51,505 bases of DNA from Candidatus Fraserbacteria bacterium. GTDB lineage: Bacteria; Bipolaricaulota; Bipolaricaulia; RBG-16-55-9; DRXL01. Below the pieces are notes generated by a model that did no database searches, was not told the DNA's origin, and saw only the letters and a list, made by a program, of their open reading frames with translations. The stretch covers positions 1-51,505 of the forward strand of contig CAMTVK010000009.1 of assembly GCA_947085185.1 (NCBI GenBank), given 5' to 3'. Numbering within the stretch: the stretch's first letter is position 1; every line of letters starts with the position of its first letter. Shown here one piece after another: positions 53 to 51,291 of the stretch. The translations under genes were made by a program, and so were the position numbers.

Positions 53-1567
53 TCACTCTTTACCTTTAGCCTTTTTCTTCAGCTCTATCCAGTCCTTCAT
101 ATGCTGGAGATTTTCGGTAAGATTCCACCAGCCATTCTTAAAGGTAGCATAATCAGGCGCGCCTGTCATTGCAGAGGCATATTTAATAGAATTCCCATAG
201 AACAGCCACTGCCTTATCCACAGCTGCTCTATAGTCTCATCAAAGGGGTTCTTGCCGTGGGGAAGTCCCTCAGCGAGGTTGTTCTTCCATGCATCAACAA
301 GCAGGAGGGTGGCGGCAAGGGTCATGCTGTCAACCTCTTTAATGGTATTGTCCAGTTTGGCAAAGTGGTTGTTCGCCCACGATGTGCCATGGCAGGTGTT
401 GCAGATATTCTTCATTGCGCCTTCCCTCTTCATCTGCTCTTCTTTGCTGATTAGACCTTCTGCGGCAACCTCGCCTGTGAATGCGGTCGGCATAGGCAAT
501 CCGTCCTTATTTCTGAGAACGGACGTATCGCCGTGAACCGGCTGTGGATGGGAATAAACAAGGCCGAAGAGCCTTACCCATAGCCTTGAGCCAAAGTCAT
601 GGGTCCTCTGAGCGATGACCGTTTTTCCGTCAGGCGCGGTTATGAGGCTGTTATGGCATGTGGCGCAGGTGGGCGTCTGGAAGTCCTTTCCCGCCTTCCA
701 TGGAACTGCATTGAAGTTCCACTCCTGATATTTTGAGAAGTATATGTTTCCGTGCTTACTCTCTTTATAGACATTCCACGCAGGTACGTCCGGGTCAAGG
801 TGGCACTGGGCGCATGTGTACGGTTTCCTTGCTATCTCAATAGAAAAGCTATGCCTCGGATGGCATGCAGTGCACGCCCCCATGCTTCCATCAGGATTAA
901 GCCTTCCCACCCCCTGATTGGGCCAGTTCCTGAGATTGGGGACCTTTATCTTTCCGAGCTTTGTCTCAACCTCCTTCAAGCCTTCCACCTTTACATCTGT
1001 GCCATGACATGAAAAACATGTCTCTTTCTGTGTAAGGTGCGAGGATTCCAGCTGGATCACCTTTCCATCTTTTACTTCCTTTTTGCTTATAATGGTCTCT
1101 AAAAGGGTACTATATACCGGATTCTTCTTGAGATTTCCGTGTGCATGGGCCTTTTTGCTGCCCGAATATTCCTTCGCCTCTGCGGGATGGCATGTAGAAC
1201 AGTCATTCATGGATACCACAACATTGATCTTGTATCCCATGTGGTCAAAGTTGTCCATATGTCTGTCGGGATTCAGGCTGTGGCACTCATAGCATCCCAC
1301 CACAACATTTTCAAGATGAGCAGGAACCTTTTCTGCAGACATCCTTCTTTCAAGCTCAGGTTTTTTTAAGGCAAGGGCAGGGGTTGTTTTTGAATGCAGG
1401 CTCCTTAACCAATCCTCAACAATACCCGGCGTGTAAATCCTGTGGCACGCCAGGCATGCCTCTGTCTCTTTGCTCATGGGTGGTGCAGACTCTTCTTTCT
1501 TCGTCTGAGCAAACACAAGGGTTAGCGATAGAAGTAAAACAGAAGAAATAAATATTGACTTTTTCAT
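53..1567 (-). CDS. Octaheme cytochrome c, hydroxylamine oxidoreductase (HAO)-family, probably reductive type
   Basis: Sec signal peptide; 8 CxxCH (CLACH, CYECH, CSTCH, CFSCH, CTACH, CAQCH, CATCH, CNTCH); HAO-typical segments WPNQGVGRLNPDGS, CHPRHSFS, YKESKHG; SD GGAGGA upstream. Confidence 0.88.
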   Translation of the reverse strand: MKKSIFISSVLLLSLTLVFAQTKKEESAPPMSKETEACLACHRIYTPGIVEDWLRSLHSKTTPALALKKPELERRMSAEKVPAHLENVVVGCYECHSLNPDRHMDNFDHMGYKINVVVSMNDCSTCHPAEAKEYSGSKKAHAHGNLKKNPVYSTLLETIISKKEVKDGKVIQLESSHLTQKETCFSCHGTDVKVEGLKEVETKLGKIKVPNLRNWPNQGVGRLNPDGSMGACTACHPRHSFSIEIARKPYTCAQCHLDPDVPAWNVYKESKHGNIYFSKYQEWNFNAVPWKAGKDFQTPTCATCHNSLITAPDGKTVIAQRTHDFGSRLWVRLFGLVYSHPQPVHGDTSVLRNKDGLPMPTAFTGEVAAEGLISKEEQMKREGAMKNICNTCHGTSWANNHFAKLDNTIKEVDSMTLAATLLLVDAWKNNLAEGLPHGKNPFDETIEQLWIRQWLFYGNSIKYASAMTGAPDYATFKNGWWNLTENLQHMKDWIELKKKAKGKE

Positions 1568-39217: not shown

Positions 39218-40453
39218 CTATAACCTCTCCCCGCGGCTCAAATTATAATAATAATCGGGATCAAGCCCACACGCCCGAATGAGCGCCTCGCGTTCCTCTT
39301 GAGTTATACGAGCACGACTGTCAGCTCTTCTGATCACATTGGGCACGCCCTTGCCTCGCGCGATCTCCGCTAACAGAATCTTTTGCAAACGCTCCGGCTC
39401 GCAAAACTGAAAGACCGCTTTTGGGGTCTCAATCTTCAAGACGCTGCGCACCCGAGGGTCATAGACATAGAAGAACGCCACGTGATAGAGACTCGAGTCT
39501 AAACTGAGCGCAAAATCGCTCACGGCCTTGGGCAAATCAACGACAGATTCGCGCTCCTCCCACGACGGATAGGCTTCTTGCACAAACCAATTCGTATAGC
39601 CTAACGAGTCTTTTGGAGTCTCTCTCAGGACTGCCGTCATAAACTGACGATCACTAGCCCAGCGCCGATCCGAAGAGCCTAGACAGAACCGCAAGAGCCA
39701 ACTGGTCTCCGGCGTCTTGTTGATCGCCACTACGGGGAGCCGACGTGCCAGACACGCCTCGACGAGGCGCACCGGCGCCGCCAGCAGCGCGACAATATCC
39801 TCGCGGTCGCTCAGACGCACTCCCCAGCGATACCCCCACTCCCCCTTCAGATCGCCCAAAAGATAGTAATACAGCCCGATGGGATAGAGTGCCCCGTCTA
39901 TGAGAAGCAGCCCCTCGCGGATGTCGAGAGCCTTGAGCATCGCGAGGGCATGAGTCGGCTCGCTGGTCACGTCCGCAAGCCCTTTGACGATGTGCTCGAC
40001 CTCGCGCTCAAGGAAGTCTTTGGTCAAGTGAATTCTCCAATGATAGATATGTTTGCTCTGGACGCACGTGACGCGGGCTTCGCCGACGTTCTGGAAAGAA
40101 TGCGAGACGAGCGCGATGGTGCGCCATGTCTCCAGAGGGAATTCGTGATGGCGCTGCGGAGGATCAGCGACGAACACAGCTTGATTTGCACAGAGCGTCG
40201 TGCCATCTTCGAAGTGCATGGGGCGGGTACTGCCCCCATCCACCCCATAGATCACGCCGGTCGTGTGCTGGGCCAGCTGAAGCACAGGTTCAGCACGGCG
40301 CTCTAGGGGCGTCAGGGCCTTGATGGCGCCATCAAGCTGGAGCATGCCGAAGAGCCGACGCGCCTCGTCGCGGTGACTGACGGCCCGCTGAGCCCGCTCG
40401 CCTAAGATCTTCAGCTCCGCAAGAAAGAGTCTCCGAACGTGGGAAGAGAGCAT
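39218..40453 (-). CDS. nurA: NurA family DNA double-strand break repair nuclease
   Basis: YGVDGGS, LLIDGAL, AINK, ADSRARI motifs; downstream of rad50. Confidence 0.8.
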   Translation of the reverse strand: MLSSHVRRLFLAELKILGERAQRAVSHRDEARRLFGMLQLDGAIKALTPLERRAEPVLQLAQHTTGVIYGVDGGSTRPMHFEDGTTLCANQAVFVADPPQRHHEFPLETWRTIALVSHSFQNVGEARVTCVQSKHIYHWRIHLTKDFLEREVEHIVKGLADVTSEPTHALAMLKALDIREGLLLIDGALYPIGLYYYLLGDLKGEWGYRWGVRLSDREDIVALLAAPVRLVEACLARRLPVVAINKTPETSWLLRFCLGSSDRRWASDRQFMTAVLRETPKDSLGYTNWFVQEAYPSWEERESVVDLPKAVSDFALSLDSSLYHVAFFYVYDPRVRSVLKIETPKAVFQFCEPERLQKILLAEIARGKGVPNVIRRADSRARITQEEREALIRACGLDPDYYYNLSRGERL

Positions 40454-43314
40454 TAGCGCACTTTATAGATTGTACTGATATTGTCGCTGCCCTTCTCCGT
40501 CCGATATTCGTGATCGGCCCCTTCAACTAAGCCCACCTCGTGCGAGACCACGATCACTTGGCCAACGCGCCGCCCTAAGTCCTCTAATAAGAACTGTAAT
40601 CTGTGAATGCGATCTCGGTCAAGATAGATCGTAGGCTCGTCTAAGATCAGGGGCATGCGGCGGACGGCTTTGGCTAAGACTTGATGGATCGCGCAGCGCA
40701 GCGCAATATTAATTAAAGCTCGTTCGCCCCCGGACATCAACGACGGGTTGAGGGTGCGCCCGTTCTTCAGCTCTACTTCGATCTCGTAGTCATCGCGGAC
40801 GGTCACGCGACTGTAACTGTCCCCCGCGTCCATCAACGAGAAGAATTCATTGAAATAATAATTGAGCGCCTCAAGATTGCGCTTGCGCAGCGCAACTTTT
40901 GTGCTCTGGTAGATCGAGACGATCTCGTCCAGCTCGACGGTGAGATTCTTCAGTTCTTGGTGTTTTTGTGTCACGTGCGCCATCTCGTCTTGGAGATGTT
41001 TGAGGTGTTCCAGGCGCCCTTGAATGACTCCACGCGCTTGCGCCACGCGATCGTAGTGCTCTTGGAGCGCGGCGCGCTCTTGATCTAAGGCGCTCAAGAG
41101 TTCTCGGACTTGGGCGCGCTTGCTCTCGATCTCGTTTTGGTCTTTGAGGCGCTCTTGGATCTGGTGACGCCGGTCGAGCAGTCGTGCGATGTCACCGCGC
41201 AGCTCGTTGAGGCTTTCTAAGAGCGTCTTGCGCGCGGCGTGTCTCTCGCGCCATTGTTGGCGCACCCGTATCAGATGCTCGAGCTCGCTCTTGAGTCTTT
41301 CCAGCTTCTCGTGGGTGCTCAACGAGCGATGGAGTTCTTGGGTGAGCGTCTGCACGGCGGCGGCTTGCCTCTCTTGTTCGGCTTGTTGGGCCACGATAGT
41401 GTGTGCCTCGCTCTCGATGTGGCGACGCAGCTGATTGAGACGGGCTTGAGAGAGCTGCTGGCGCTCGAGGGCGTGTGCGAGGGTGGTGCGCTTGAGCGCG
41501 AGTTCAGTGCGGCGCGCCTCCAATCGCTCGATCTCAAACAGAAGCTGCTCGAGCGAGCTGTGCACATCCTTCCAGAGCCCAAGCCGCTGTTCGATGCGTG
41601 CCAACTCTTGTTCTTCGTATTGGACTGATCTTTCTAATTCAGCGATCTGGGGTTCGATCGCGTTGAGCGACTCTGCCAGATGTTCTGGATGAACAGCTTG
41701 GCCGCAGGTGGGGCAGCGTCCCGCGGCGAGCAACGCCTGTTTTTGGGCGAGCTCGTGTCGCAGGGCATCGTAGTGGGTCTTGGCTTCCAATACGGCCCGC
41801 TTCGCTCGATCGTGTTGCTCCTCAAGATCTCGAAGCTCCGCAGCCCACTGCGCCCGAATCTTTTCGGCGAGCTGCACATCGGGGAGCATCGTTGGGAATG
41901 GCACTTCGAGCGTTTGTGCGCGCGCCGCGATCTGATGCAGGGTGCGTCGCACGGCCTGCTCGTGGTCGGCGTGAGCTTGGGCGAGAGTAGTGAGCTCTGT
42001 CTCTAAGTGTTTGATCTGTTCGGCTTCGCGCGCGTGGGTGCGGGAGAGTTCTTCGCATTGCGCGCGCAGGTGCGCGAGGGCTCGCTCGCGGTGCGTGCGC
42101 TCGGCGCTCAGACGAGCCAGCTCTTCGCGCACTTCTTGAAGTTGAGCCCTTTGGGTTTCGATGAGCGCTTTGCACTCCGCGAGCTTTGTTGATACTGCTG
42201 TGACGTCGTCGGACGTTGTGGCTTGGTCGAGCGACTCTATAATGGGTGCAGCGTCGAGAGAGCTCTCCGCGAGTAGCTTTTTGAGGGTGAGCATGGATTT
42301 CTGATGGCGCCCGCTGAGGCTCTCAAGCTCGCTCTCGAACTCCTTGCGTTCGGCCTCGCGCTGCGCCAGCCGAGATTGTTTGTCTTCAAGTTCTTGGTCT
42401 ATCTGGTGCAGCTCTTGAGTAGCTTGGGCGAAGTGCCTGAGGGAATCTTCGTAGCTTTGTAAGAGCTTATGAGCGTTGGCGCGTCGCTCGTCGAGGTCTT
42501 TGAGATCGTTTTGGAGGCGCTCCAAGGACTCGGTAAGCTGCGCTCTTTGTTTGTCCAGCGCTTCGCGTTCGAGGGCGTCTATCTGTTGGCGCAGGCGGGC
42601 TGAGCGCTCTTCCAAAGAGCTCATGCGTCGGTTGAGAGCGCGTAGGGCTTCTTTGGAGCGCGGGGTGACAAAGAGATCTATCTTATACAGTCCCAGCAGC
42701 CCGTCGAGCATCTGTTCGCGCGTCCGACGATCCGCGCGGATGAGCCTGTCTATCTCCCCTTGGCGCACGTAGACACAATTGGCAAACCCCTCGCGGTCCA
42801 TCCCGAAGAACCGTTCGATCTCGGCGATCACGTTCTCCGTGCCGATCCACACCGAGCCGTCGTCGCAGGTGAGCTGACAGCCGTTGCGCTCGCTCTTGAC
42901 TGTGCCGCCAGCTCGTCGCAGGGCGATCTCGGCGGTGTAGCGTTTCCTGCTGTAGATGAAGCGCAGCTTCACCGAGCCGGAATCCGCACCAATCCGTAAG
43001 ATCTCGTCGAGAGTGCGCCCGATGACGTGGCGTGCCTCGCTGCCGTAGAGCGCAAAGAAGATGCTCTCTAACAGCGAGGACTTGCCGCTGCCGTTGGCCC
43101 CAGCGATCACTGTGATCCCCGGCTGGAACTGCACCGAAGCTTTCTTATAGCTCCAGAGGTTTTCGATCTCCAAGTGCTCTAGTTGAAACTGATCCCGTGC
43201 GAGCCCCAAGCGATCCTCATCGCGCAAGGCCGGACGAGCCGTCTCCGGTTCCAGCTGCACTTTGCTCAACAGATCGAGCAAATTCTCTTGTTCTCTTATG
43301 GGTTTTCGTGCCAT
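40453..43314 (-). CDS. rad50: Rad50/SbcC SMC-like ATPase
   Basis: GANGSGKS Walker A, YVRQGE Q-loop, CPTC zinc hook, MSGGE, LILDEP, VSH. Confidence 0.92.
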   Translation of the reverse strand: MARKPIREQENLLDLLSKVQLEPETARPALRDEDRLGLARDQFQLEHLEIENLWSYKKASVQFQPGITVIAGANGSGKSSLLESIFFALYGSEARHVIGRTLDEILRIGADSGSVKLRFIYSRKRYTAEIALRRAGGTVKSERNGCQLTCDDGSVWIGTENVIAEIERFFGMDREGFANCVYVRQGEIDRLIRADRRTREQMLDGLLGLYKIDLFVTPRSKEALRALNRRMSSLEERSARLRQQIDALEREALDKQRAQLTESLERLQNDLKDLDERRANAHKLLQSYEDSLRHFAQATQELHQIDQELEDKQSRLAQREAERKEFESELESLSGRHQKSMLTLKKLLAESSLDAAPIIESLDQATTSDDVTAVSTKLAECKALIETQRAQLQEVREELARLSAERTHRERALAHLRAQCEELSRTHAREAEQIKHLETELTTLAQAHADHEQAVRRTLHQIAARAQTLEVPFPTMLPDVQLAEKIRAQWAAELRDLEEQHDRAKRAVLEAKTHYDALRHELAQKQALLAAGRCPTCGQAVHPEHLAESLNAIEPQIAELERSVQYEEQELARIEQRLGLWKDVHSSLEQLLFEIERLEARRTELALKRTTLAHALERQQLSQARLNQLRRHIESEAHTIVAQQAEQERQAAAVQTLTQELHRSLSTHEKLERLKSELEHLIRVRQQWRERHAARKTLLESLNELRGDIARLLDRRHQIQERLKDQNEIESKRAQVRELLSALDQERAALQEHYDRVAQARGVIQGRLEHLKHLQDEMAHVTQKHQELKNLTVELDEIVSIYQSTKVALRKRNLEALNYYFNEFFSLMDAGDSYSRVTVRDDYEIEVELKNGRTLNPSLMSGGERALINIALRCAIHQVLAKAVRRMPLILDEPTIYLDRDRIHRLQFLLEDLGRRVGQVIVVSHEVGLVEGADHEYRTEKGSDNISTIYKVR

Positions 43315-44342
43315 GCTCGCTCCAGCAGCGCCGTCACTTCGGGATCTACATTCGAGTCTGCGATCGTCAGATCTCTGATGACTTGGTCAATCTCACGAGC
43401 GATGGATGAGAGATTCTTCTTGGCCAGGGCTTCAGATATGACTTGCTCGACATCGCTGAACTCCATGGTGACCGCCGGCTCGGTGGGGTGTTCGGTGGGG
43501 GTGCGCACATCGCGCACGCGCACCGCGAGCGCCCCGCGTTCGTAGCCAAGCTGCTCGATCTCGGCAACTGTCGGCTCAGCAGTGCTTAAGTACACGACCA
43601 CGACGGCGCCGTGCACGTCCGAGTTGGCAATTCGCTGAAGAGGGTCTTCATCCGATGGGATATAGAGAAAACGTCGTGTGACCAGCTCATGACGCTGGAG
43701 CCGCCCGTTCTGGAGGTCTATAATATTGACGCCTCGGGGACGCTTCTCGTCGAGCATCCAGCGTTCGGTGCTGCCGCAGTACGTCACGAGCTTCTCGTCG
43801 TTGCGCCAGACGCGGTGCTCGTGATAATCTCCCAGCAGCACGAATTGGGCGCCGCATTGCCAGAGTTGTTCGAGTGTCAGCTCGCCGTCACGCTCGACTT
43901 GGTCAAGCAACTGATGGCAGACCAAAACGCCGCCCTCGCACGAAGTGAGCGTCACCGAGCGTCGTCCAGAGAAATCGTGCCCGTAGATGGGGACGCCCTC
44001 CAAATCGAAGGGCTCTGCTCGCAGGTGCACAGCTAGGCCCAAATCCTCAAAGAGATCGAGCCATTGGACGCCGCGGCGCTGCTCGTGATTGCCCACGATC
44101 CCTAAGAAGTGAATGCCTGCATCCTTGAGGGTGAAAAGCCCCTGCAAGGTCGCGAGGAGATCTTCGGCGCCGGGATTGCGGTCTTCGAAGAGATCGCCGG
44201 CGTGGATGACGGCAGCAACCCTCTCGTCCAGGGCGACCTGGACGACTTGCAAGAACGCGTCGGCGAAATCCTTACGACGCTCTTCTAAGCCATACTGGCG
44301 AAAGCCTATGTGCGTATCGCCGGTGTGCAAGACTTTAGCCAT
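43296..44342 (-). CDS. mre11: Mre11/SbcD nuclease
   Basis: HTGDTHIG, AGDLF, GNHE, GDYH, YCGSTER. Confidence 0.92.
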   Translation of the reverse strand: MAKVLHTGDTHIGFRQYGLEERRKDFADAFLQVVQVALDERVAAVIHAGDLFEDRNPGAEDLLATLQGLFTLKDAGIHFLGIVGNHEQRRGVQWLDLFEDLGLAVHLRAEPFDLEGVPIYGHDFSGRRSVTLTSCEGGVLVCHQLLDQVERDGELTLEQLWQCGAQFVLLGDYHEHRVWRNDEKLVTYCGSTERWMLDEKRPRGVNIIDLQNGRLQRHELVTRRFLYIPSDEDPLQRIANSDVHGAVVVVYLSTAEPTVAEIEQLGYERGALAVRVRDVRTPTEHPTEPAVTMEFSDVEQVISEALAKKNLSSIAREIDQVIRDLTIADSNVDPEVTALLERAWHENP

Positions 44343-44393
44343 GTGCTTTTATACTAGCACGATTGGCGTAAAAAGCAAGGACAAGGGTCTATT

Positions 44394-44433
44394 AAAAAAG
44401 CCGCTCCGCCGTAGGGCAGTGCGGCGGAGCGGC
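44394..44433 (-). terminator. Rho-independent terminator
   Basis: Perfect 12-bp stem GCCGCTCCGCCG/CGGCGGAGCGGC followed on the minus strand by T6. Confidence 0.8.
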
Positions 44434-44780
44434 CTGCCCCCTCAAGCAGCAGGGTCTTGAGGGGGATTGCTGTCATCCCTCTACCGGTGCTTCCCCCACT
44501 CCACGGGGGCGTTATCGCCCCCTCCCCTCTCTCCCGCGGTAAGCGCTCCCAAGTAGAGAGGATGACAGGGCCAGGGAGCTTGAGCCTTCCGGCGCTTGCG
44601 CGCCGCGCTCGTGACTGGGGAAAAATCCCGCCTTGCTGGGGGCCTGGTCCAAAAAGGCGGGCAAAACCCTGGTCGTCGAGCAGACCGAAGCATCGCTCCG
44701 GCGAAGGCTTCCGTCCCCCTGGTAAGGAGGTTGTGTTGGGGTCGTATAGAAATTACTATTTCTCTCATATTTAATCGTCA
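44394..44780 (-). ncRNA. Candidate large structured ncRNA of unknown family
   Basis: Two promoter-like elements upstream, at least seven helices including GCAA and C-UUCG-G loops on the minus strand, terminator at the 3' end, no credible ORF. Confidence 0.55.
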
Positions 44781-44816
44781 AGGATAGTGTATAGCATATT
44801 TTTCAAATATTGTCAA
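44753..44816 (-). promoter_or_regulatory. Tandem sigma70-type promoters
   Basis: TTGACA-17-TATACA with TG extension (44816-44788) and TTGACG-17-TAGTAA (44781-44753). Confidence 0.55.
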
Positions 44817-45031: not shown

Positions 45032-45280
45032 ATGAAGACCAGAGAGATAAGCCAATGGAAGTGGGTCTACGTGCGGATGCGCGGCGGATTGGGCTTTGCG
45101 TTCGTGTCGGTACCGCTGGACCTGACTGTCTCCCAACTCAAACTCATGCTGGGGGCCGACCCACGCAGTGTGGTCACCGTGCGCTCGGCGTTCCGGCCCC
45201 TCGCAGAGAACGAGTCCCTCTACGGTCGTGTTGCCAACTACGATACAGTCTACATTGAGCCGTGTCGTCGAGCTGTGTAA
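45032..45280 (+). CDS. Small protein, probable ubiquitin-like beta-grasp fold
   Basis: AAGGAGG SD; VYVRMRGG...VSVPLDLTVSQLKLML...PLAENESLY...DTVYI pattern. Confidence 0.55.
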   Translation: MKTREISQWKWVYVRMRGGLGFAFVSVPLDLTVSQLKLMLGADPRSVVTVRSAFRPLAENESLYGRVANYDTVYIEPCRRAV

Positions 45281-45723: not shown

Positions 45724-45807
45724 CTGCGCGTTCTTAACAGACAGACTCTCGTGTTTCTCGGCTTCAGCCGCGTGAGACGGATTTTCAAACTACGAGGAGG
45801 TTTTCAG

Positions 45808-46293
45808 ATGACACGACGCAACTTGCTCAAAACCGCCGGCGCATTCGCTGTGACCGGCCTAACCACCGCTCTTACAGGGCAGAGAGTGAAGGCTCACAAG
45901 AAAGAAGCCCTGCGCGAAGTCCATCTCTATATGGGAGACGGCTATTATCGGTGGGAGTTCAAAGAAGGCGACAAGCCCGTGAGAACTGAGAGAAACGCCC
46001 CTATGAAGCTCAAAGTTGGTCAGCTGCTTTTCTTCATTGCTCACAACGAAGGACGGCTCGTCCACAATGCGCACATCGGACGAAGAGCCAATCTAACGGA
46101 GCAACGGTACGACGAGCATCTCTTTGAGAATTTCTTCTCGCTGACGCTCGAGCCGCGCAGCGTCGTCGAACTAGAGGTGCTCGTCCCGGACAAGCCCGGC
46201 GAGTGGGAGCTGGGCGACTTCTCGCTGGATCGCAACGGGAAGACGCTCTACGAAGCCACGGGCATGAAAGCCCCATTGACGGTGGAGAAGTAA
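45808..46293 (+). CDS. Tat-exported cupredoxin-fold protein with degenerate Cu ligands
   Basis: TRRNLL Tat signal; HNEGRLVHN, PGEWELGD, YEATGMKAPLTV; GAGGAGG SD. Confidence 0.7.
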   Translation: MTRRNLLKTAGAFAVTGLTTALTGQRVKAHKKEALREVHLYMGDGYYRWEFKEGDKPVRTERNAPMKLKVGQLLFFIAHNEGRLVHNAHIGRRANLTEQRYDEHLFENFFSLTLEPRSVVELEVLVPDKPGEWELGDFSLDRNGKTLYEATGMKAPLTVEK

Positions 46294-46323
46294 GAAGACC
46301 TAGCTTCCACCTCTTCTCTGCAA

Positions 46324-46378
46324 CCCTCACCCGGCCTAGGCCACCCTCTCCCTTTTAGGGAGAGGGACGGGGTGAGGG
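46324..46378. repeat. REP-like palindromic element
   Basis: CCCTCACC...CCCTCTCCC-TTTTA-GGGAGAGGG...GGTGAGGG nested inverted repeat in an intergenic position. Confidence 0.7.
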
Positions 46379-46418
46379 TAATGAAGGGTTGAGAGAGAGC
46401 CATAAGGAGGAGACACTA

Positions 46419-47027
46419 ATGCAGAATAGAAGAATCGAATTGCGTATCGAGCCTTGGGTATTGGTGGCCGCTTTGGCCGCCGTGCTCTTGGTTGGGTGGA
46501 TGACCCTGCGAGCCAACAATCCGCCCCCGGTCAGCCAGCCAAGCCCTGAACAATCCAACAGAGTCTGGGTCGTCAAGATGGTCACGAAAGTTTCTGACGG
46601 AAAAGTCGAGCAGGTCTTCGAGCCGGATCGCTTAGTGATCGCCCCCGGCGACACGGTGCGCTGGGAGCTCGAGAACGGCATACACAATACAGTTGCTTTT
46701 CATCCAGGCGATGAGCACGCGGACCATCACGACGATGCCGGCAGCCCTGGCGAGCGCCCGTTGCGCATCCCGGCGAAAGCGAAGCCCTGGGAGTCAGAGC
46801 ACATGCGCACACCGGGCGAAGCCTTTGAGTACACTTTCACTATTGAAGGCATCTATAACTATTTCTGCCATCCGCACGAATTCGATGGCATGGTCGGCGC
46901 GATTGTCGTCGGCAGTCCCAAGCCGGGGCCGGGGCTGGAGCCTCCGCAAAGAGACCTGCCCGAAGCAACCCAAGCCAAACTGAAAGAGCTAATCGCCTGG
47001 GCGAAGGCCCAGAAAGGAGTTCGATAA
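46419..47027 (+). CDS. Membrane-anchored plastocyanin/azurin-family blue copper protein
   Basis: PGDTVRW, HNTV, YFCHPHEFDGM type-1 Cu ligands; AAGGAGG SD. Confidence 0.9.
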   Translation: MQNRRIELRIEPWVLVAALAAVLLVGWMTLRANNPPPVSQPSPEQSNRVWVVKMVTKVSDGKVEQVFEPDRLVIAPGDTVRWELENGIHNTVAFHPGDEHADHHDDAGSPGERPLRIPAKAKPWESEHMRTPGEAFEYTFTIEGIYNYFCHPHEFDGMVGAIVVGSPKPGPGLEPPQRDLPEATQAKLKELIAWAKAQKGVR

Positions 47028-47029
47028 TT

Positions 47030-48022
47030 ATGAAAGCCTTGAAGAACAGAAAAGTGATCTTTGCGCTCACGCTGACAACTTTGGGCGTGGCAACCGGCCT
47101 GCTGTGGCCTAATCTGGCGCTCAAACAAAGCGTGACTCAACAACCGGAAGCGCAAGCTCAAGCGCCGGTGGTGCGCGAGTTTTTCATCACGGCTCAAGAG
47201 ACGAATTGGATGCTCGGCCCCGATATGCCTTTCGAGGCGTGGACCTATAACGGAACCGTGCCGGGGCCGGAGATCCGGGTGAAGGAGGGCGAGGTCGTGC
47301 GCATTGTTTTCAAAAACGAGCTTCCTGTGGCGACCACGCTTCACCCTCACGGCGTAGATCTGCCCAACGCCATGGACGGCGTGCCGGGCATCACTCAAAA
47401 ACCCGTACAGCCGGGCGAGACGTTCATCTATGAGTTCATCGCCCGACCCGCGGGGACGCGCTTCTATCACACGCATGGCAACGGGGAAGAGATGTCCGAA
47501 GCCGATCAGATGGACCGCGGGCTCTATGGGGCGCTCATCATTGAGCCTACGCCTCCACAACCCGTCGTGGACGAGCCGGGCCGACGGCCTCTTTTCATGC
47601 CAAAGCCCTATGACCGCGAGTACACGCTCATCTTGGACGAGTGGCGCGGCGGCGAGCATGGGCCGCACGGCGTGGGCGATTACAGCATCTTCACCATCAA
47701 TGGGAAGGCCTTCCCTGAGACAACGCCCCTGAAGGTGAGGAAGGGCGAGCGCGTGCGCCTTCGCTTAATCAATGCTGGTACGACGGCCTTTCACCCGATT
47801 CACTTGCACGGGCATCAGTTCAAAGTGGTCGCGACCGACGGAAATCCCGTGCCCTTTGGGCTGGAGCTGACCAAGAACACCATTACCGTGATGCCCGGCG
47901 AGACCTATGATATTGAGTTCGTTGCTGACAATCCAGGCGTTTGGGTGTTGCACTGCCACGAACTGCACCACGCTGGCGGCGGGATGGTCACGCTGGTACA
48001 ATTGGTACAATATGAGAACTAA
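47030..48022 (+). CDS. Two-domain multicopper oxidase (small laccase, T1 site in domain 2)
   Basis: HPHG and YHTH (no T1 Cys) in domain 1; HPIHLHG and HCHELHHAGGGM in domain 2. Confidence 0.88.
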   Translation: MKALKNRKVIFALTLTTLGVATGLLWPNLALKQSVTQQPEAQAQAPVVREFFITAQETNWMLGPDMPFEAWTYNGTVPGPEIRVKEGEVVRIVFKNELPVATTLHPHGVDLPNAMDGVPGITQKPVQPGETFIYEFIARPAGTRFYHTHGNGEEMSEADQMDRGLYGALIIEPTPPQPVVDEPGRRPLFMPKPYDREYTLILDEWRGGEHGPHGVGDYSIFTINGKAFPETTPLKVRKGERVRLRLINAGTTAFHPIHLHGHQFKVVATDGNPVPFGLELTKNTITVMPGETYDIEFVADNPGVWVLHCHELHHAGGGMVTLVQLVQYEN

Positions 48023-48044
48023 TAGCGCAACCGAGGAGGTCTCT

Positions 48045-48839
48045 ATGAAGCACAACTATATAGAGCTGCGCACTCAAGCGTGGACGGTGATGCTTGCTGT
48101 TGCCGTGGCCGCATTGTTCGCGTTTATGTTCTTACGCATGGGCGGCATGATGAGGCCGATGAACCAACAGGCAACGATGACACAGATGATGGCCAGCATT
48201 GACAAAGCCCTAGGGCAAGTGAATGCAGCGCTGACCCACTCTGACGAAGCTTTGAAGACCACTGATTTGGCCGCTTTGAAAAAACACGTTCGCTTGGCCC
48301 AAGGCGCGCTCACCGGCCGAGGCGGAGCCATGATGCAGATGCAAATGATGGGACAGATGATGAAAGGCCCGATGATGACCATGTCTGGCCAGGGCATGAT
48401 GGGGATGTCGATGGAGCATCATACAAATATGATGGCAGCTCGCGAAGCAGCTCAGTCGAGTCTTCAGAGGGCTCGTGAGCACTTTGAAGAGGCCCTGAAA
48501 GCATATAAGTTGGAGACGGCCCAAGAGCACGTCCGATTAGCAGCAGAGCAATTGCAAGCGGCACAAGGCACAGCAGGGAGCAACGATCCCAAAGCTGGGG
48601 CTCTCACGTATTTGAAGGAGCAGATGGCCCAGATGATGGGGCAGGGGATGATGCAGTCCGATCTGAAGAGCAAGATCGACTGCGCGGTCCCATGGCTGGA
48701 GAAGGCCATCGCGCTGCATGAGCTGCACATGAAAGATCCCTCGACGACTACGGAGCAATCGCAGATGGAGCTTATGGATCAGATCAAGAAGGCCCATGAG
48801 TGTTTGACCGGCAAGTCCATGCCAGGGATGCCCCATTGA
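48045..48839 (+). CDS. Met-rich helical membrane-anchored protein, probable Cu-binding
   Basis: TM helix, multiple MMxM tracts, His in helices; GAGGAGG SD. Confidence 0.7.
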   Translation: MKHNYIELRTQAWTVMLAVAVAALFAFMFLRMGGMMRPMNQQATMTQMMASIDKALGQVNAALTHSDEALKTTDLAALKKHVRLAQGALTGRGGAMMQMQMMGQMMKGPMMTMSGQGMMGMSMEHHTNMMAAREAAQSSLQRAREHFEEALKAYKLETAQEHVRLAAEQLQAAQGTAGSNDPKAGALTYLKEQMAQMMGQGMMQSDLKSKIDCAVPWLEKAIALHELHMKDPSTTTEQSQMELMDQIKKAHECLTGKSMPGMPH

Positions 48840-48932
48840 AAACTGTGGGCATGGAGCACGAGCTGGGCATAATCCTATGGCTCCATGACTGGCTTGGCAT
48901 ACCCAAACCCAACTAGAGAAAGGAGACTCTGT

Positions 48933-49334
48933 ATGAACAACTTCACCTACGTTGTCGAGACGAAGAAATCGTTCCCAGAAGCTGTCATTGCTGTGCGCAA
49001 GGCCGCCGAAGCCCACAAATGGGGCGTCTTGGGCGATTATGATTTTTCGGAGATCTTAGCTGCCAAGGGCTTTCCCCAGGCAGAGCAAGTGAAGTCATTA
49101 GATATCTGTGCCCCGGCGCACGCCCATGCGCTCATGGGCACGGAGCGCCTGACGGGACTCTGTATGCCCTGCAGTGTCTTAATCTTTACTGATAGAGGCA
49201 AGACGAAGATCGCGGCAATGCGCCCTGGCGCGGTGATGCCTCAGATCTTCCCCCATGTGATGCAGAAAGCGGGTGATCTGCCCAAGAAGATTGACGCTGA
49301 GATTCAGTCTATTTTGGATACGGCAGCACAGTGA
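48933..49334 (+). CDS. DUF302 domain protein
   Basis: KSFPEAV...WGVL...ICAP...MPCSVLI...AMRP. Confidence 0.85.
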   Translation: MNNFTYVVETKKSFPEAVIAVRKAAEAHKWGVLGDYDFSEILAAKGFPQAEQVKSLDICAPAHAHALMGTERLTGLCMPCSVLIFTDRGKTKIAAMRPGAVMPQIFPHVMQKAGDLPKKIDAEIQSILDTAAQ

Positions 49335-49345
49335 GAGAGGGATCA

Positions 49346-50881
49346 ATGAGTCAGCGCAGAAACTTAAACCGACGGGAGTTCCTACGCTGCGCCAGCCTTA
49401 GCGCAATGGCGTTGGTGACCGGCAGTTGGTTAAGCGGTCGGGCCACAAGCAGCCTCCCGGACTTAGAAATCGCTCTGAGGGCAACTGCCTCGGAGGTCTC
49501 TATACTCCCCGGCCAACCGACCCGCGTCTGGACGTATCAAGGGGAAGTGTTGCGGGGCAACCCCACCAGCTTACAAGCGTTACCAGGCTCTTATCTGGGC
49601 CCCATTATCCGGGCGCGCCAAGGGCAGCGAGTCCGCATCCGCTTCACCAACAACCTGCCGGAAAAGACGGTCATCCACTGGCACGGCCTGTACACACCGG
49701 AGAGGATGGACGGGCATCCTCGTGATGTCATCGGTCCAGGCCAGAGCTATGTCTACGAATTTCCAGTGATCAACCGAGCAGGGACGTATTGGTTTCATCC
49801 GCATCCCCACGGGCGCACAGGGCCGCAGGTCTACTCCGGTTTGGCCGGGCTCTTCTTAGTATCGGACGACGAAGAAACCCAGGCTGGCCTCCCCAGCGGC
49901 GAGTACGACCTGCCCTTGATCATACAAGACCGCACCTTTGACACGAGCAATCAACTTGTTTACTCGACCGGCGGCATGGGCATGATGGATGGCTTCTTGG
50001 GCGAGCGCATCCTGGTCAACGGGCATCCCAATTTCACTCTGTCGGTCGCGACTCGGGCTTACCGTCTGCGCCTTCTTAATGGCTCCAATTCCCGCATCTA
50101 CAAGTTGGCCTGGAGCGATGGAACGCCTCTCATCGTCATCGGCACCGACGGCGGCCTTCTAGAGACACCGGTCCCTCGGAGTTATGTGATGCTTGCACCC
50201 GGAGAGCGGATTGAACTGTGGGCCGATTTCAGCCAGCGCCCCGTAGGCACAGAGATAGTATTGCAGAGCTTGGCCTTTTCTGGGGCGGAAGTCGGCATGG
50301 GCGGCATGATGGGAGGTGGTCAGCCCTTGCCCAACGGCGCTCCTTTCCCTGTGCTTAAGGTCCGCGTAGAGCGTCAGGAGCCAGAGGCGCTCACCCTGCC
50401 CACGAAGCTGTCTGCCATGACCCGTTATCGGCCTACAGATGCCGTCAACTATAGCAATCCCCGCACCTTCGCCGTTTCTTTGAGCATGATGGGCATGATG
50501 CAGGTGCAATGGCTGCTCAACGAGCGGCCGTTCCAAATGGAAGAAGTGGCCCCTAATGAGAAAGTGAAGCTCAATACGTTAGAGATGTGGGAATTTGTCA
50601 ATGAGACGACGCCGATGGCCATGGCCCACCCCATTCACATCCATGGGCCGCTGTTTCAAATTATCGAGCGACAGGTTCGCCCTGACCAGATCGCCAGCTG
50701 GGAGACAGTGCGCGCCGGCTACGTGGATGAGGGCTGGAGGGATACAGTGCTCTTGATGCCCGGCGAGCGCGTGAAAGTCTTGCTCAAGTTTGAGAACTAT
50801 ACAGGGCTGTACGTCTATCACTGCCATAATTTAGAGCACGAAGACGCAGGAATGATGCGCAACTATTTGGTGAGTACCTGA
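49346..50881 (+). CDS. Tat-exported three-domain multicopper oxidase (CueO/bilirubin oxidase-like)
   Basis: NRREFL; HWHG, WFHPH, HPIHIHG, HCHNLEHEDAGMM; Met-rich loops. Confidence 0.93.
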   Translation: MSQRRNLNRREFLRCASLSAMALVTGSWLSGRATSSLPDLEIALRATASEVSILPGQPTRVWTYQGEVLRGNPTSLQALPGSYLGPIIRARQGQRVRIRFTNNLPEKTVIHWHGLYTPERMDGHPRDVIGPGQSYVYEFPVINRAGTYWFHPHPHGRTGPQVYSGLAGLFLVSDDEETQAGLPSGEYDLPLIIQDRTFDTSNQLVYSTGGMGMMDGFLGERILVNGHPNFTLSVATRAYRLRLLNGSNSRIYKLAWSDGTPLIVIGTDGGLLETPVPRSYVMLAPGERIELWADFSQRPVGTEIVLQSLAFSGAEVGMGGMMGGGQPLPNGAPFPVLKVRVERQEPEALTLPTKLSAMTRYRPTDAVNYSNPRTFAVSLSMMGMMQVQWLLNERPFQMEEVAPNEKVKLNTLEMWEFVNETTPMAMAHPIHIHGPLFQIIERQVRPDQIASWETVRAGYVDEGWRDTVLLMPGERVKVLLKFENYTGLYVYHCHNLEHEDAGMMRNYLVST

Positions 50882-50910
50882 CCAACGAAATCAGAAAGGG
50901 AGTGAACGCT

Positions 50911-51291
50911 ATGGCAGAGCAACGACCAACAGAGAAGCCCATCGCGGCTTTTGTGCTCTCGCTCTTGGCGGGTCTGGGGATGCTGACCGTCGGAGTCGGA
51001 GCGATGATGTCCGGTGGAGGGGACTGGGGGATGGGCGGCTGGATGTGGGGCCATGGGATGATGCGGGGCTTTGCCCCAACGTTCTGGTGGCTGTGGTTTT
51101 GGATCATCGCTGGGATCGTCGTCTTAGTGGGAGCCGCGATGCTCTATGCCAAGCCGGAGCAGCGTCAGACATGGGGGATTGTGATCTTAATTGCTTCAGC
51201 GCTCAACTTTTTCTTAAGCATGGGGCTGGCAGGGGGGCTGGGTGTGATCGGAGGAGTACTGGCATTAAGACAGACACCCTGTCAGTTTTGA
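50911..51291 (+). CDS. Small Met/Gly-rich integral membrane protein
   Basis: 3-4 TM helices with a GMGGWMWGHGMM loop; last gene of the copper operon. Confidence 0.7.
   Translation: MAEQRPTEKPIAAFVLSLLAGLGMLTVGVGAMMSGGGDWGMGGWMWGHGMMRGFAPTFWWLWFWIIAGIVVLVGAAMLYAKPEQRQTWGIVILIASALNFFLSMGLAGGLGVIGGVLALRQTPCQF

Follow-up and report, generated by a model that had tools for sequence, protein, structure and literature searches.

A divergent representative of a multicopy, uncatalogued family of predicted structured RNAs in Bipolaricaulota, carrying an anti-Shine-Dalgarno motif and a U-rich internal loop

Introduction

The 51,505-nt stretch of Candidatus Fraserbacteria DNA analyzed here (the window) raises the question of what is encoded between the mre11-rad50-nurA operon and a divergently read small ORF. 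An earlier note on this DNA had proposed a standalone, unclassified RNA with promoters and a terminator of its own, and this first reading is supported by Rfam, repeat and covariation checks. The comparisons described below indicate that the locus holds a real, conserved element with a predicted structure, which belongs, as a divergent member, to a multicopy RNA family absent from the catalogues. That the family has six copies in this genome, with a common core and tRNA-like relatives, is not visible from the window alone.

Results

Locus and comparison with known RNA classes

The element occupies the minus strand from about 44781 to 44394 and is predicted to be a structured non-coding RNA gene of ~350-390 nt. 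A search of the window with Rfam 15 placed tRNA-Val alone at threshold, and at E<=10 the matches of the element all stayed below threshold, the highest scoring 21 bits where the cut-off is 50. Seven paralogue loci gave nothing at the gathering threshold, and the C4 antisense models matched neither the window element nor these loci. The element was also not matched by models of RNase P RNA, tmRNA or SRP RNA, as the earlier note had anticipated, and such genes sit elsewhere in the genome: RNase P RNA on contig C1 (224 bits), tmRNA on contig C21 (124943-125277, minus strand, 134 bits), and an SRP-like gene on contig C14 (49 bits, below the large-SRP cut-off). ARAGORN called nothing for the family. 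A permuted or missing tmRNA in this genome was considered and rejected, since the Rfam model found the tmRNA that ARAGORN had missed.

On the plus strand, the neighboring small conserved ORF (45032-45280, about 82 aa) adjoins the RNA. It had been described as ubiquitin-like; no Pfam or NCBIfam match was obtained, only beta-grasp leads scoring below 0.9. Its nearest Atlas clusters are without names and mostly viral. The ORF adjoins the RNA in the sister genus as well, and adjoins lexA in several congeners. Further along the plus strand (45751-51291) lies a cluster of ORFs that by eye appear cupredoxin- and multicopper-oxidase-like, which was not seen beside the element in relatives.

Promoter, terminator and predicted fold

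A predicted sigma70-type promoter (44788..44816, minus strand) consists of TTGACA (44816-44811), a 17-nt spacer and a TG-extended TATACA (44793-44788), matching 10/12 consensus positions, and TTGACA is found upstream in 12/14 orthologues. Transcription would start near 44781. A second promoter had also been proposed, but this one (TTGACG/TAGTAA) scores 8/12 and is not seen in orthologues. The perfect 12-bp terminator with U6 was confirmed (44394..44433, minus strand): its stem (44433-44422/44411-44400) encloses a 10-nt loop with conserved UGCCC, and 6/13 pairs change on both sides among orthologues. A promoter and terminator prediction tool listed neither this terminator nor any minus-strand promoter here, as it accepts loops of at most 8 nt and the -10 box has A as its last letter. 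Transcription would run from the TTGACA promoter through to the terminator.

In likeness to the lexA promoter (15/26 letters), the RNA promoter ranks third of the 662 TTGACA sites of the genome (second after lexA itself). LexA control was nevertheless rejected: several other TTGACA sites of the genome also have TGCTATAC, the -10 letters recur in other promoters, and a palindrome scan found no site at recA or uvrA, so that the likeness was treated as promoter consensus. The lexA gene itself (contig C19, near 82029-82060) starts almost directly after its -10 box, as it does at L003, L004, L006 and L159, and its promoter bears a long palindrome, making it a candidate leaderless, self-repressed gene. 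Two genes that we take to be recA-like by a motif search are located on contigs C2 and C19, one of them directly downstream of a lexA-like gene.

Read 5' to 3' on the minus strand, the element begins with a 5' extension (44746..44781) conserved neither in length nor in sequence, followed by a predicted single-stranded leader, GACCCCAACACAACCUCCUUA (44723..44743), which is unpaired in the fold. The word resembling the 16S anti-Shine-Dalgarno (anti-SD) sequence that the earlier note had seen in the 5' part lies here, as AACCUCCUUA at 44732-44723. In Domain 1 (44571..44722), closing helices 44722-15/44578-71 and 44708-03/44589-84 surround a four-way junction bearing a hairpin (44702-44684), a long arm (44682-44606) and a further hairpin (44605-44590), the last occupying the site of the T-like arm of paralogues. 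The long arm contains the family core (44613..44674), composed of (i) a GAC/GUC helix, (ii) tandem C-A mismatches, (iii) GGG/CCC, (iv) a U-rich internal loop formed by UUUUG (44666-62) and AUUUUU (44626-21), and (v) an upper stem (44661-54/44634-27) with a C-rich apical loop, ACCAGGCCC. Domain 2 (44470..44568), seen in the orthologue group of the window copy, has a 15-bp helix around purine-rich strands and a hairpin (44522-44505); it is followed by a conserved hairpin with a C-rich loop, ACCCUGCUG (44437..44465), and by the terminator.

Most of the helices first picked out by eye recur in this model. The upper stem (44654-61/44627-34), the long helix 44553-68/44470-84, interrupted by a single bulge, and the hairpins at 44505-22 and 44437-65 are present in both the sequence and the predicted fold, as is the hairpin at 44591-44604, although its GCAA loop is not conserved. 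The C-UUCG-G hairpin proposed at 44678-98 is not supported: its bases sit in a stem that covaries, without conservation of UUCG. The same holds for the pairing 44667-72/44571-76, since GGG 44669-67 pairs instead with CCC 44620-18 throughout the family, and the partner of 44578-71 is 44722-15.

The minus-strand fold is more stable than expected from shuffled sequences (z = -5.1 and -5.4; 0/100 shuffles equally stable), but the plus strand folds comparably well (z = -5.3), so that folding energy alone cannot fix the strand. The tetraloops had been taken to indicate the minus strand. Across 66 core copies, the minus reading gives 51 G-U pairs against 17 A-C mismatches, and this excess together with the U-tailed terminator supports an RNA encoded on the minus strand.

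Orthologues and relation to the mre11 operon

A blastn search of 184 genomes of the phylum identified orthologues of near full length, with 73-83% identity, in 8/12 congeners. In the sister genus, partial matches were obtained in 2/3 genomes, both of which align over the whole length. The conserved span extends from the leader (44743) to the terminator, and the leader contains 20 invariant columns in nine congeners, or 17 when the sister genus is added. Covariation, called for as a check, is present in the full-length alignment: 25 of 80 consensus pairs change on both sides, amounting to 46 cells against 14.7 +/- 3.3 in shuffled alignments and 4-12 when the structure is slid, with the qualifications that the 80-pair structure was derived from the same 11 alignment rows on which it was scored, and that related rows are not independent, the counts sharing ancestry. 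Compared with the window copy, every one of the ten orthologues (10/10) has indels that shift the frame. The element thus shows no conserved reading frame and is predicted to be non-coding.

At 8/14 orthologues (L003, L005-L008 and others), an AUG stands behind a purine-rich stretch just 5' of the leader. It opens a 7-codon frame ending in Pro-Pro, often then a stop, across the anti-SD motif. The purine-rich stretch repeats the 3' strand of the Domain 2 helix and could compete with it.

The operon downstream (39218-44342, minus strand) comprises mre11, rad50 and nurA, with Mre11 matching a haloarchaeal model best (280 bits, under its cut-off). As the element immediately precedes this operon in the same orientation, has a terminator at its end and keeps its synteny with mre11 in nine genomes, it might be a cis-acting leader, attenuator or riboswitch of this operon. 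Beyond the terminator, however, lies a separate, conserved mre11 promoter (44342..44378, minus strand; TTGCTT 44378-73, TAGTAT 44356-51, ATG 44342). Three congeners keep both this promoter and the small ORF but have no element at the syntenic site; two more congeners, in which mre11 is cut by contig ends, are uninformative on presence. In the sister genus, the element again comes after the small ORF, but the gene beyond it is not mre11, and this placement together with the three congeners without the element argues that it is not an mre11 leader. The predicted fold contains no competing antiterminator, and paralogues precede unrelated genes. The cis-leader reading is thus largely refuted and in our view scarcely credible, and the element stands alone relative to the operon, as first proposed. 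The absence from three congeners also means that this copy is dispensable. The mre11 ATG lies only 8 nt past the -10 box, so that its message is predicted to be leaderless.

A multicopy RNA family of the order

Besides the window copy, which is a divergent member, this genome contains five further copies, all intergenic and beside unrelated genes; a promoter-like site scoring 9-10/12 is present at 4/6 copies. A blastn search with no query but the window copy already retrieved cores of paralogues from a different family. An exact-pattern search with the best-conserved 60 letters found matches in 32/184 genomes, all in the order of the window, and a reversed-pattern control gave 0 matches. With a covariance model built from 63 cores, 2-8 copies per genome were found in 33/33 genomes of the order that were scored, and matches in 41/151 genomes overall. 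Other orders contributed clear copies in three genomes and weak copies in five more; family f11 had no copies in its 55 genomes by the same method. The window copy scores 64 bits with model R1, in whose training set it is included.

The core, a small and sharply defined unit of 68 positions, is all that the paralogues have in common; their lengths, read from the flanks, range from about 100 to 480 nt. Among 63 copies, 9/14 core pairs change on both sides (206 cells against 72.4 +/- 7.9 in shuffled alignments), and the helices flanking the loop are paired in 96.7% of cells. The loop itself, GGG-UUUUG/AUUUUU-CCC, is near-invariant, an invariance that is partly circular because the core rows were chosen by a pattern fixing invariant letters. 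The counts of anti-SD motifs, tRNA-like arms and A-tracts given below draw on a set of 112 copies selected by pattern and stem filter, from which the window copy itself and five divergent matches of the model are absent. In the divergent copies found by the model, which provide a non-circular check, the upper stem differs but GGG, CCC and both U-runs are retained. Five U stand on each side of the loop in two copies of genome G052.

Family members generally combine a leader with a closing helix, short hairpins at a junction and the long arm, and finish with a C/U-rich tail or a terminator; to this plan the window group adds a second domain and two C-rich hairpins. The paralogues L073, L142, L070, L287 and L288 are minimal, at ~100 nt, with the closing helix, core arm and C/U tail. 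Another minimal copy, with an anti-SD loop, is located in a 111-kb viral contig (L150, IMGVR_UViG_3300023197_000086, 1493-1556, minus strand), where it has a promoter-like site in front and is flanked by hypothetical ORFs.

Several other candidates were rejected. Five matches outside the phylum (L072, L086, L091, L143 and L120) scored 20-28 bits, compared to 47-75 for real copies, and were dropped before counting; they are stem-poor, and the opposite strand of four reads as the Walker A region of an AAA-ATPase, which we take to be FtsH-like. Eight further viral pattern matches were attributed to chance, six scoring 22.6 bits or less and two being unmatched by the model. A blastn search against phage and plasmid collections gave no match. 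Taken together, these comparisons of genomes show a conserved, uncatalogued, order-wide multicopy family of predicted RNAs of Bipolaricaulota.

Two other readings of the element are a non-autonomous mobile element of the MITE kind and a short protein-coding gene. Presence is patchy: in an Mre11 tree of 15 rows, one genome with an empty site is sister to a carrier (94/93), implying at least two separate losses or gains. One copy is viral, and the AUG described above precedes the leader in 8/14 orthologues. Against a MITE stand the single blastn match of the element in its own genome at E<=0.001, so that it is not a repeat, the restriction of similarity among paralogues to the core, the differing left breakpoints of empty sites, and the lack of a target duplication by eye. 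Against a coding gene stand the broken frames in 10/10 orthologues, the lack of any Pfam match when the two ORFs overlapping it were scanned, and the absence of the AUG from the window copy and the sister genus. Both readings are largely refuted, and we assign them very little probability.

The anti-Shine-Dalgarno motif

An anti-SD motif, counted as either CCUCC in the arm or an upstream CCUCCU no more than 120 nt away, is carried by 102/106 copies; CCTCCT occurs in 3.5% of random 120-nt windows. The motif is located in the apical loop in 82 copies and in the leader region in 56, one or both sites being occupied in the 102. In the window copy it is found in the leader only, the apical loop being of another kind, and it matches the 16S tail of this genome, GGATCACCTCCTTTCT. 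The C-rich, SD-complementary site is conserved and predicted to be unpaired, and its shifting between leader and apical loop is as expected of a seed that needs to be single-stranded. On the 5' side of CCUCC, the sequence differs from paralogue to paralogue and for the most part does not follow the 16S tail.

Pairing with ribosome-binding sites is suggested by the anti-SD motif, which is predicted to be exposed and changes place among copies, by the standalone layout and by the divergence of the seeds. We consider the chances about even that the RNA is an Hfq-independent sRNA repressing translation in trans. The anti-SD leader would pair with the ribosome-binding sites of target messages and block ribosome docking on selected ones, lowering their translation. 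The rigid junction, tRNA-like in paralogues, would hold the seed exposed and resist decay; the letters beside CCUCC, differing from one paralogue to another, would direct each to its own target set; and the U-rich loop may provide a second site of binding, whose partner would be either a protein or an A-rich strand of RNA.

With the window leader, 10-11 contiguous pairs are possible at 7/603 SD-led starts, mostly of proteins with N-termini resembling signal peptides by eye, a count that is not specific because an anti-SD seed matches any strong SD. No conserved target emerged among the candidates; efp was rejected because the extended match is present in only 4/11 RNA-bearing genomes. The antisense reading leaves the U-rich loop, the most invariant feature, unaccounted for.

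The U-rich internal loop

We presume a letter-level likeness between the core loop and the ENE of PAN RNA. Excerpts of two reports describe ENEs as U-rich internal loops beside G-C pairs, occurring in KSHV PAN RNA, MALAT1 and plant and fungal transposons (PMC7583470, PMC13541005), and the family core, a U-rich internal loop with adjacent G-C pairs, fits this description. By analogy, the family could form an ENE-like triple helix in which the loop clamps an A-tract, a reading that we consider unlikely and that is compatible with the antisense one. The clamped A-tract might be the RNA's own added tail, conferring stability, or an A-run by the SD of a target, giving a two-point grip.

The retention of both U-runs and GGG/CCC in divergent copies with changed upper stems is consistent with this, as is the presence of PNPase in the genome, an enzyme that can add tails. 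However, the window RNA has no A-tract of at least four, and among 112 copies none has a conserved position. The genome has a single gene of the PolyA_pol family, whose best score is with a CCA-adding enzyme though under every cut-off, and no clear PcnB was found in it. AAAA is present within 8 nt upstream (<=8 nt) in 8/31 GGAGGTT starts compared to 22/389 others (p = 0.0007), but against AT-matched starts the enrichment is 8/31 versus 9/72 (p = 0.15), and 3/8 of the genes look paralogous; with significance lost in this control, an A-tract beside the SD was rejected as triplex partner. Unlike the ENEs in the excerpts cited above, the family is bacterial and encodes no A-tract, a G-A pair caps the loop in place of a fifth U pair in most copies, the loop is internal and distant from the 3' end, and the triplex is hypothetical. 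A protein-binding role for the loop is about as likely.

tRNA-like arms and protein-binding readings

After the core, 39/107 copies have a 4-bp arm with a heptamer that we take to be T-loop-like, and 26/107 have both this arm and a D-like, GG-containing hairpin before the core. With D-like and T-like arms on either side, the long arm stands at the place of an anticodon arm. In the window group, hairpins persist at the same places with drifted loops, and a canonical T arm is present in 1/17. Such arms at a junction recall the YrlA Y RNAs, whose tether mimics tRNA in the part of the source available (PMC4201824), and the tRNA-like domain of tmRNA. This genome, unlike one with a YrlA system as described there, has no detected Ro60 gene (0 TROVE matches, which argues against a YrlA Y RNA), and the arms of the window copy are degenerate (PMC4201824). 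Unlike tmRNA, the family receives no ARAGORN call, and the genome has a separate tmRNA.

These arms also bear on a doubtful but possible alternative, a decoy or scaffold mimicking the 16S 3' tail and, in paralogues, the tRNA elbow, that would bind not mRNAs but a nuclease, a 30S maturation factor or another protein recognizing the U-rich loop. The invariant core is a non-canonical loop, which would be typical of protein sites; one paralogue leader has 11 letters in common with the 16S tail; and the YrlA precedent (PMC4201824, as excerpted) accords with the T-like and D-like arms counted above. Against this, the letters 5' of CCUCC are mostly unlike the 16S tail, the D and T arms are degenerate in the window group, Ro60 was not found in the genome, and no candidate partner protein was identified. 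No CsrA match over the cut-off was found in the genome either, which argues against a CsrB/RsmY-type sponge.

A divergent 6S-like RNA, binding RNA polymerase via the internal loop, is highly improbable. No RF00013 match was found in this 96.8%-complete genome, leaving room for such an RNA, an absence that is weak evidence as the 6S model finds only 5/14 control genomes. The element, however, is not matched by the model either, is branched rather than rod-shaped, has a small U-rich loop and has six paralogous copies in the genome, and its anti-SD motif would be left unexplained.

Discussion

Among described RNAs, the antisense reading finds its nearest likenesses in two systems. The LhrC1-5 sRNAs of Listeria are multicopy, carry UCCC sites and act independently of Hfq, and RsaE, RNAIII and FsrA are named as further C-rich, SD-pairing sRNAs of Gram-positives in the same excerpts (PMC4132741). 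The present family resembles LhrC1-5 in being multicopy and standalone, with C-rich, SD-complementary sites predicted to be single-stranded, in a genome without detectable Hfq. It differs from LhrC1-5, as described in these excerpts, in that its paralogues are divergent where LhrC copies are near-identical, in the full ACCUCCUU anti-SD in place of UCCC, in the multiway junction and in the invariant U-rich loop; there is also no sequence or Rfam match (PMC4132741). The C4 loop of phages P1 and P7 occludes ribosome-binding sites and has multicopy derivatives in Acinetobacter (PMC5320573, excerpts). Like C4, the family presents a loop to ribosome-binding sites, by prediction, on a branched scaffold, and is multicopy in chromosomes with one viral copy; unlike C4 as described there, it is much larger, has the U-rich internal loop and gives no Rfam match (PMC5320573).

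Within the full text searched, no published description of the family or of a bacterial ENE was found, nor any description of regulatory RNAs of Bipolaricaulota. The ENE-type loops described in the sources consulted all belong to eukaryotic or viral RNAs (PMC7583470, PMC13541005).

A more speculative combination, which we regard as quite unlikely, is that a tRNA-like junction, an ENE-type loop and an anti-SD seed together clamp messages by pairing and a U-A-U triple helix, free of Hfq. If true, this would be a lineage-wide brake on SD-led translation, borrowed by a phage and sparing leaderless messages such as that of mre11. At stake are the use of ENE-type triple helices by bacteria and the recurrence, as a design, of an anti-SD motif on tRNA-like scaffolds.

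Hfq was not found in this genome, the LSm search returned 0/35, and CsrA, Ro60 and 6S RNA were likewise undetected in it. With 2-8 copies per genome across the order and no such factors detected here, the family may be the main post-transcriptional layer of regulation in these bacteria.
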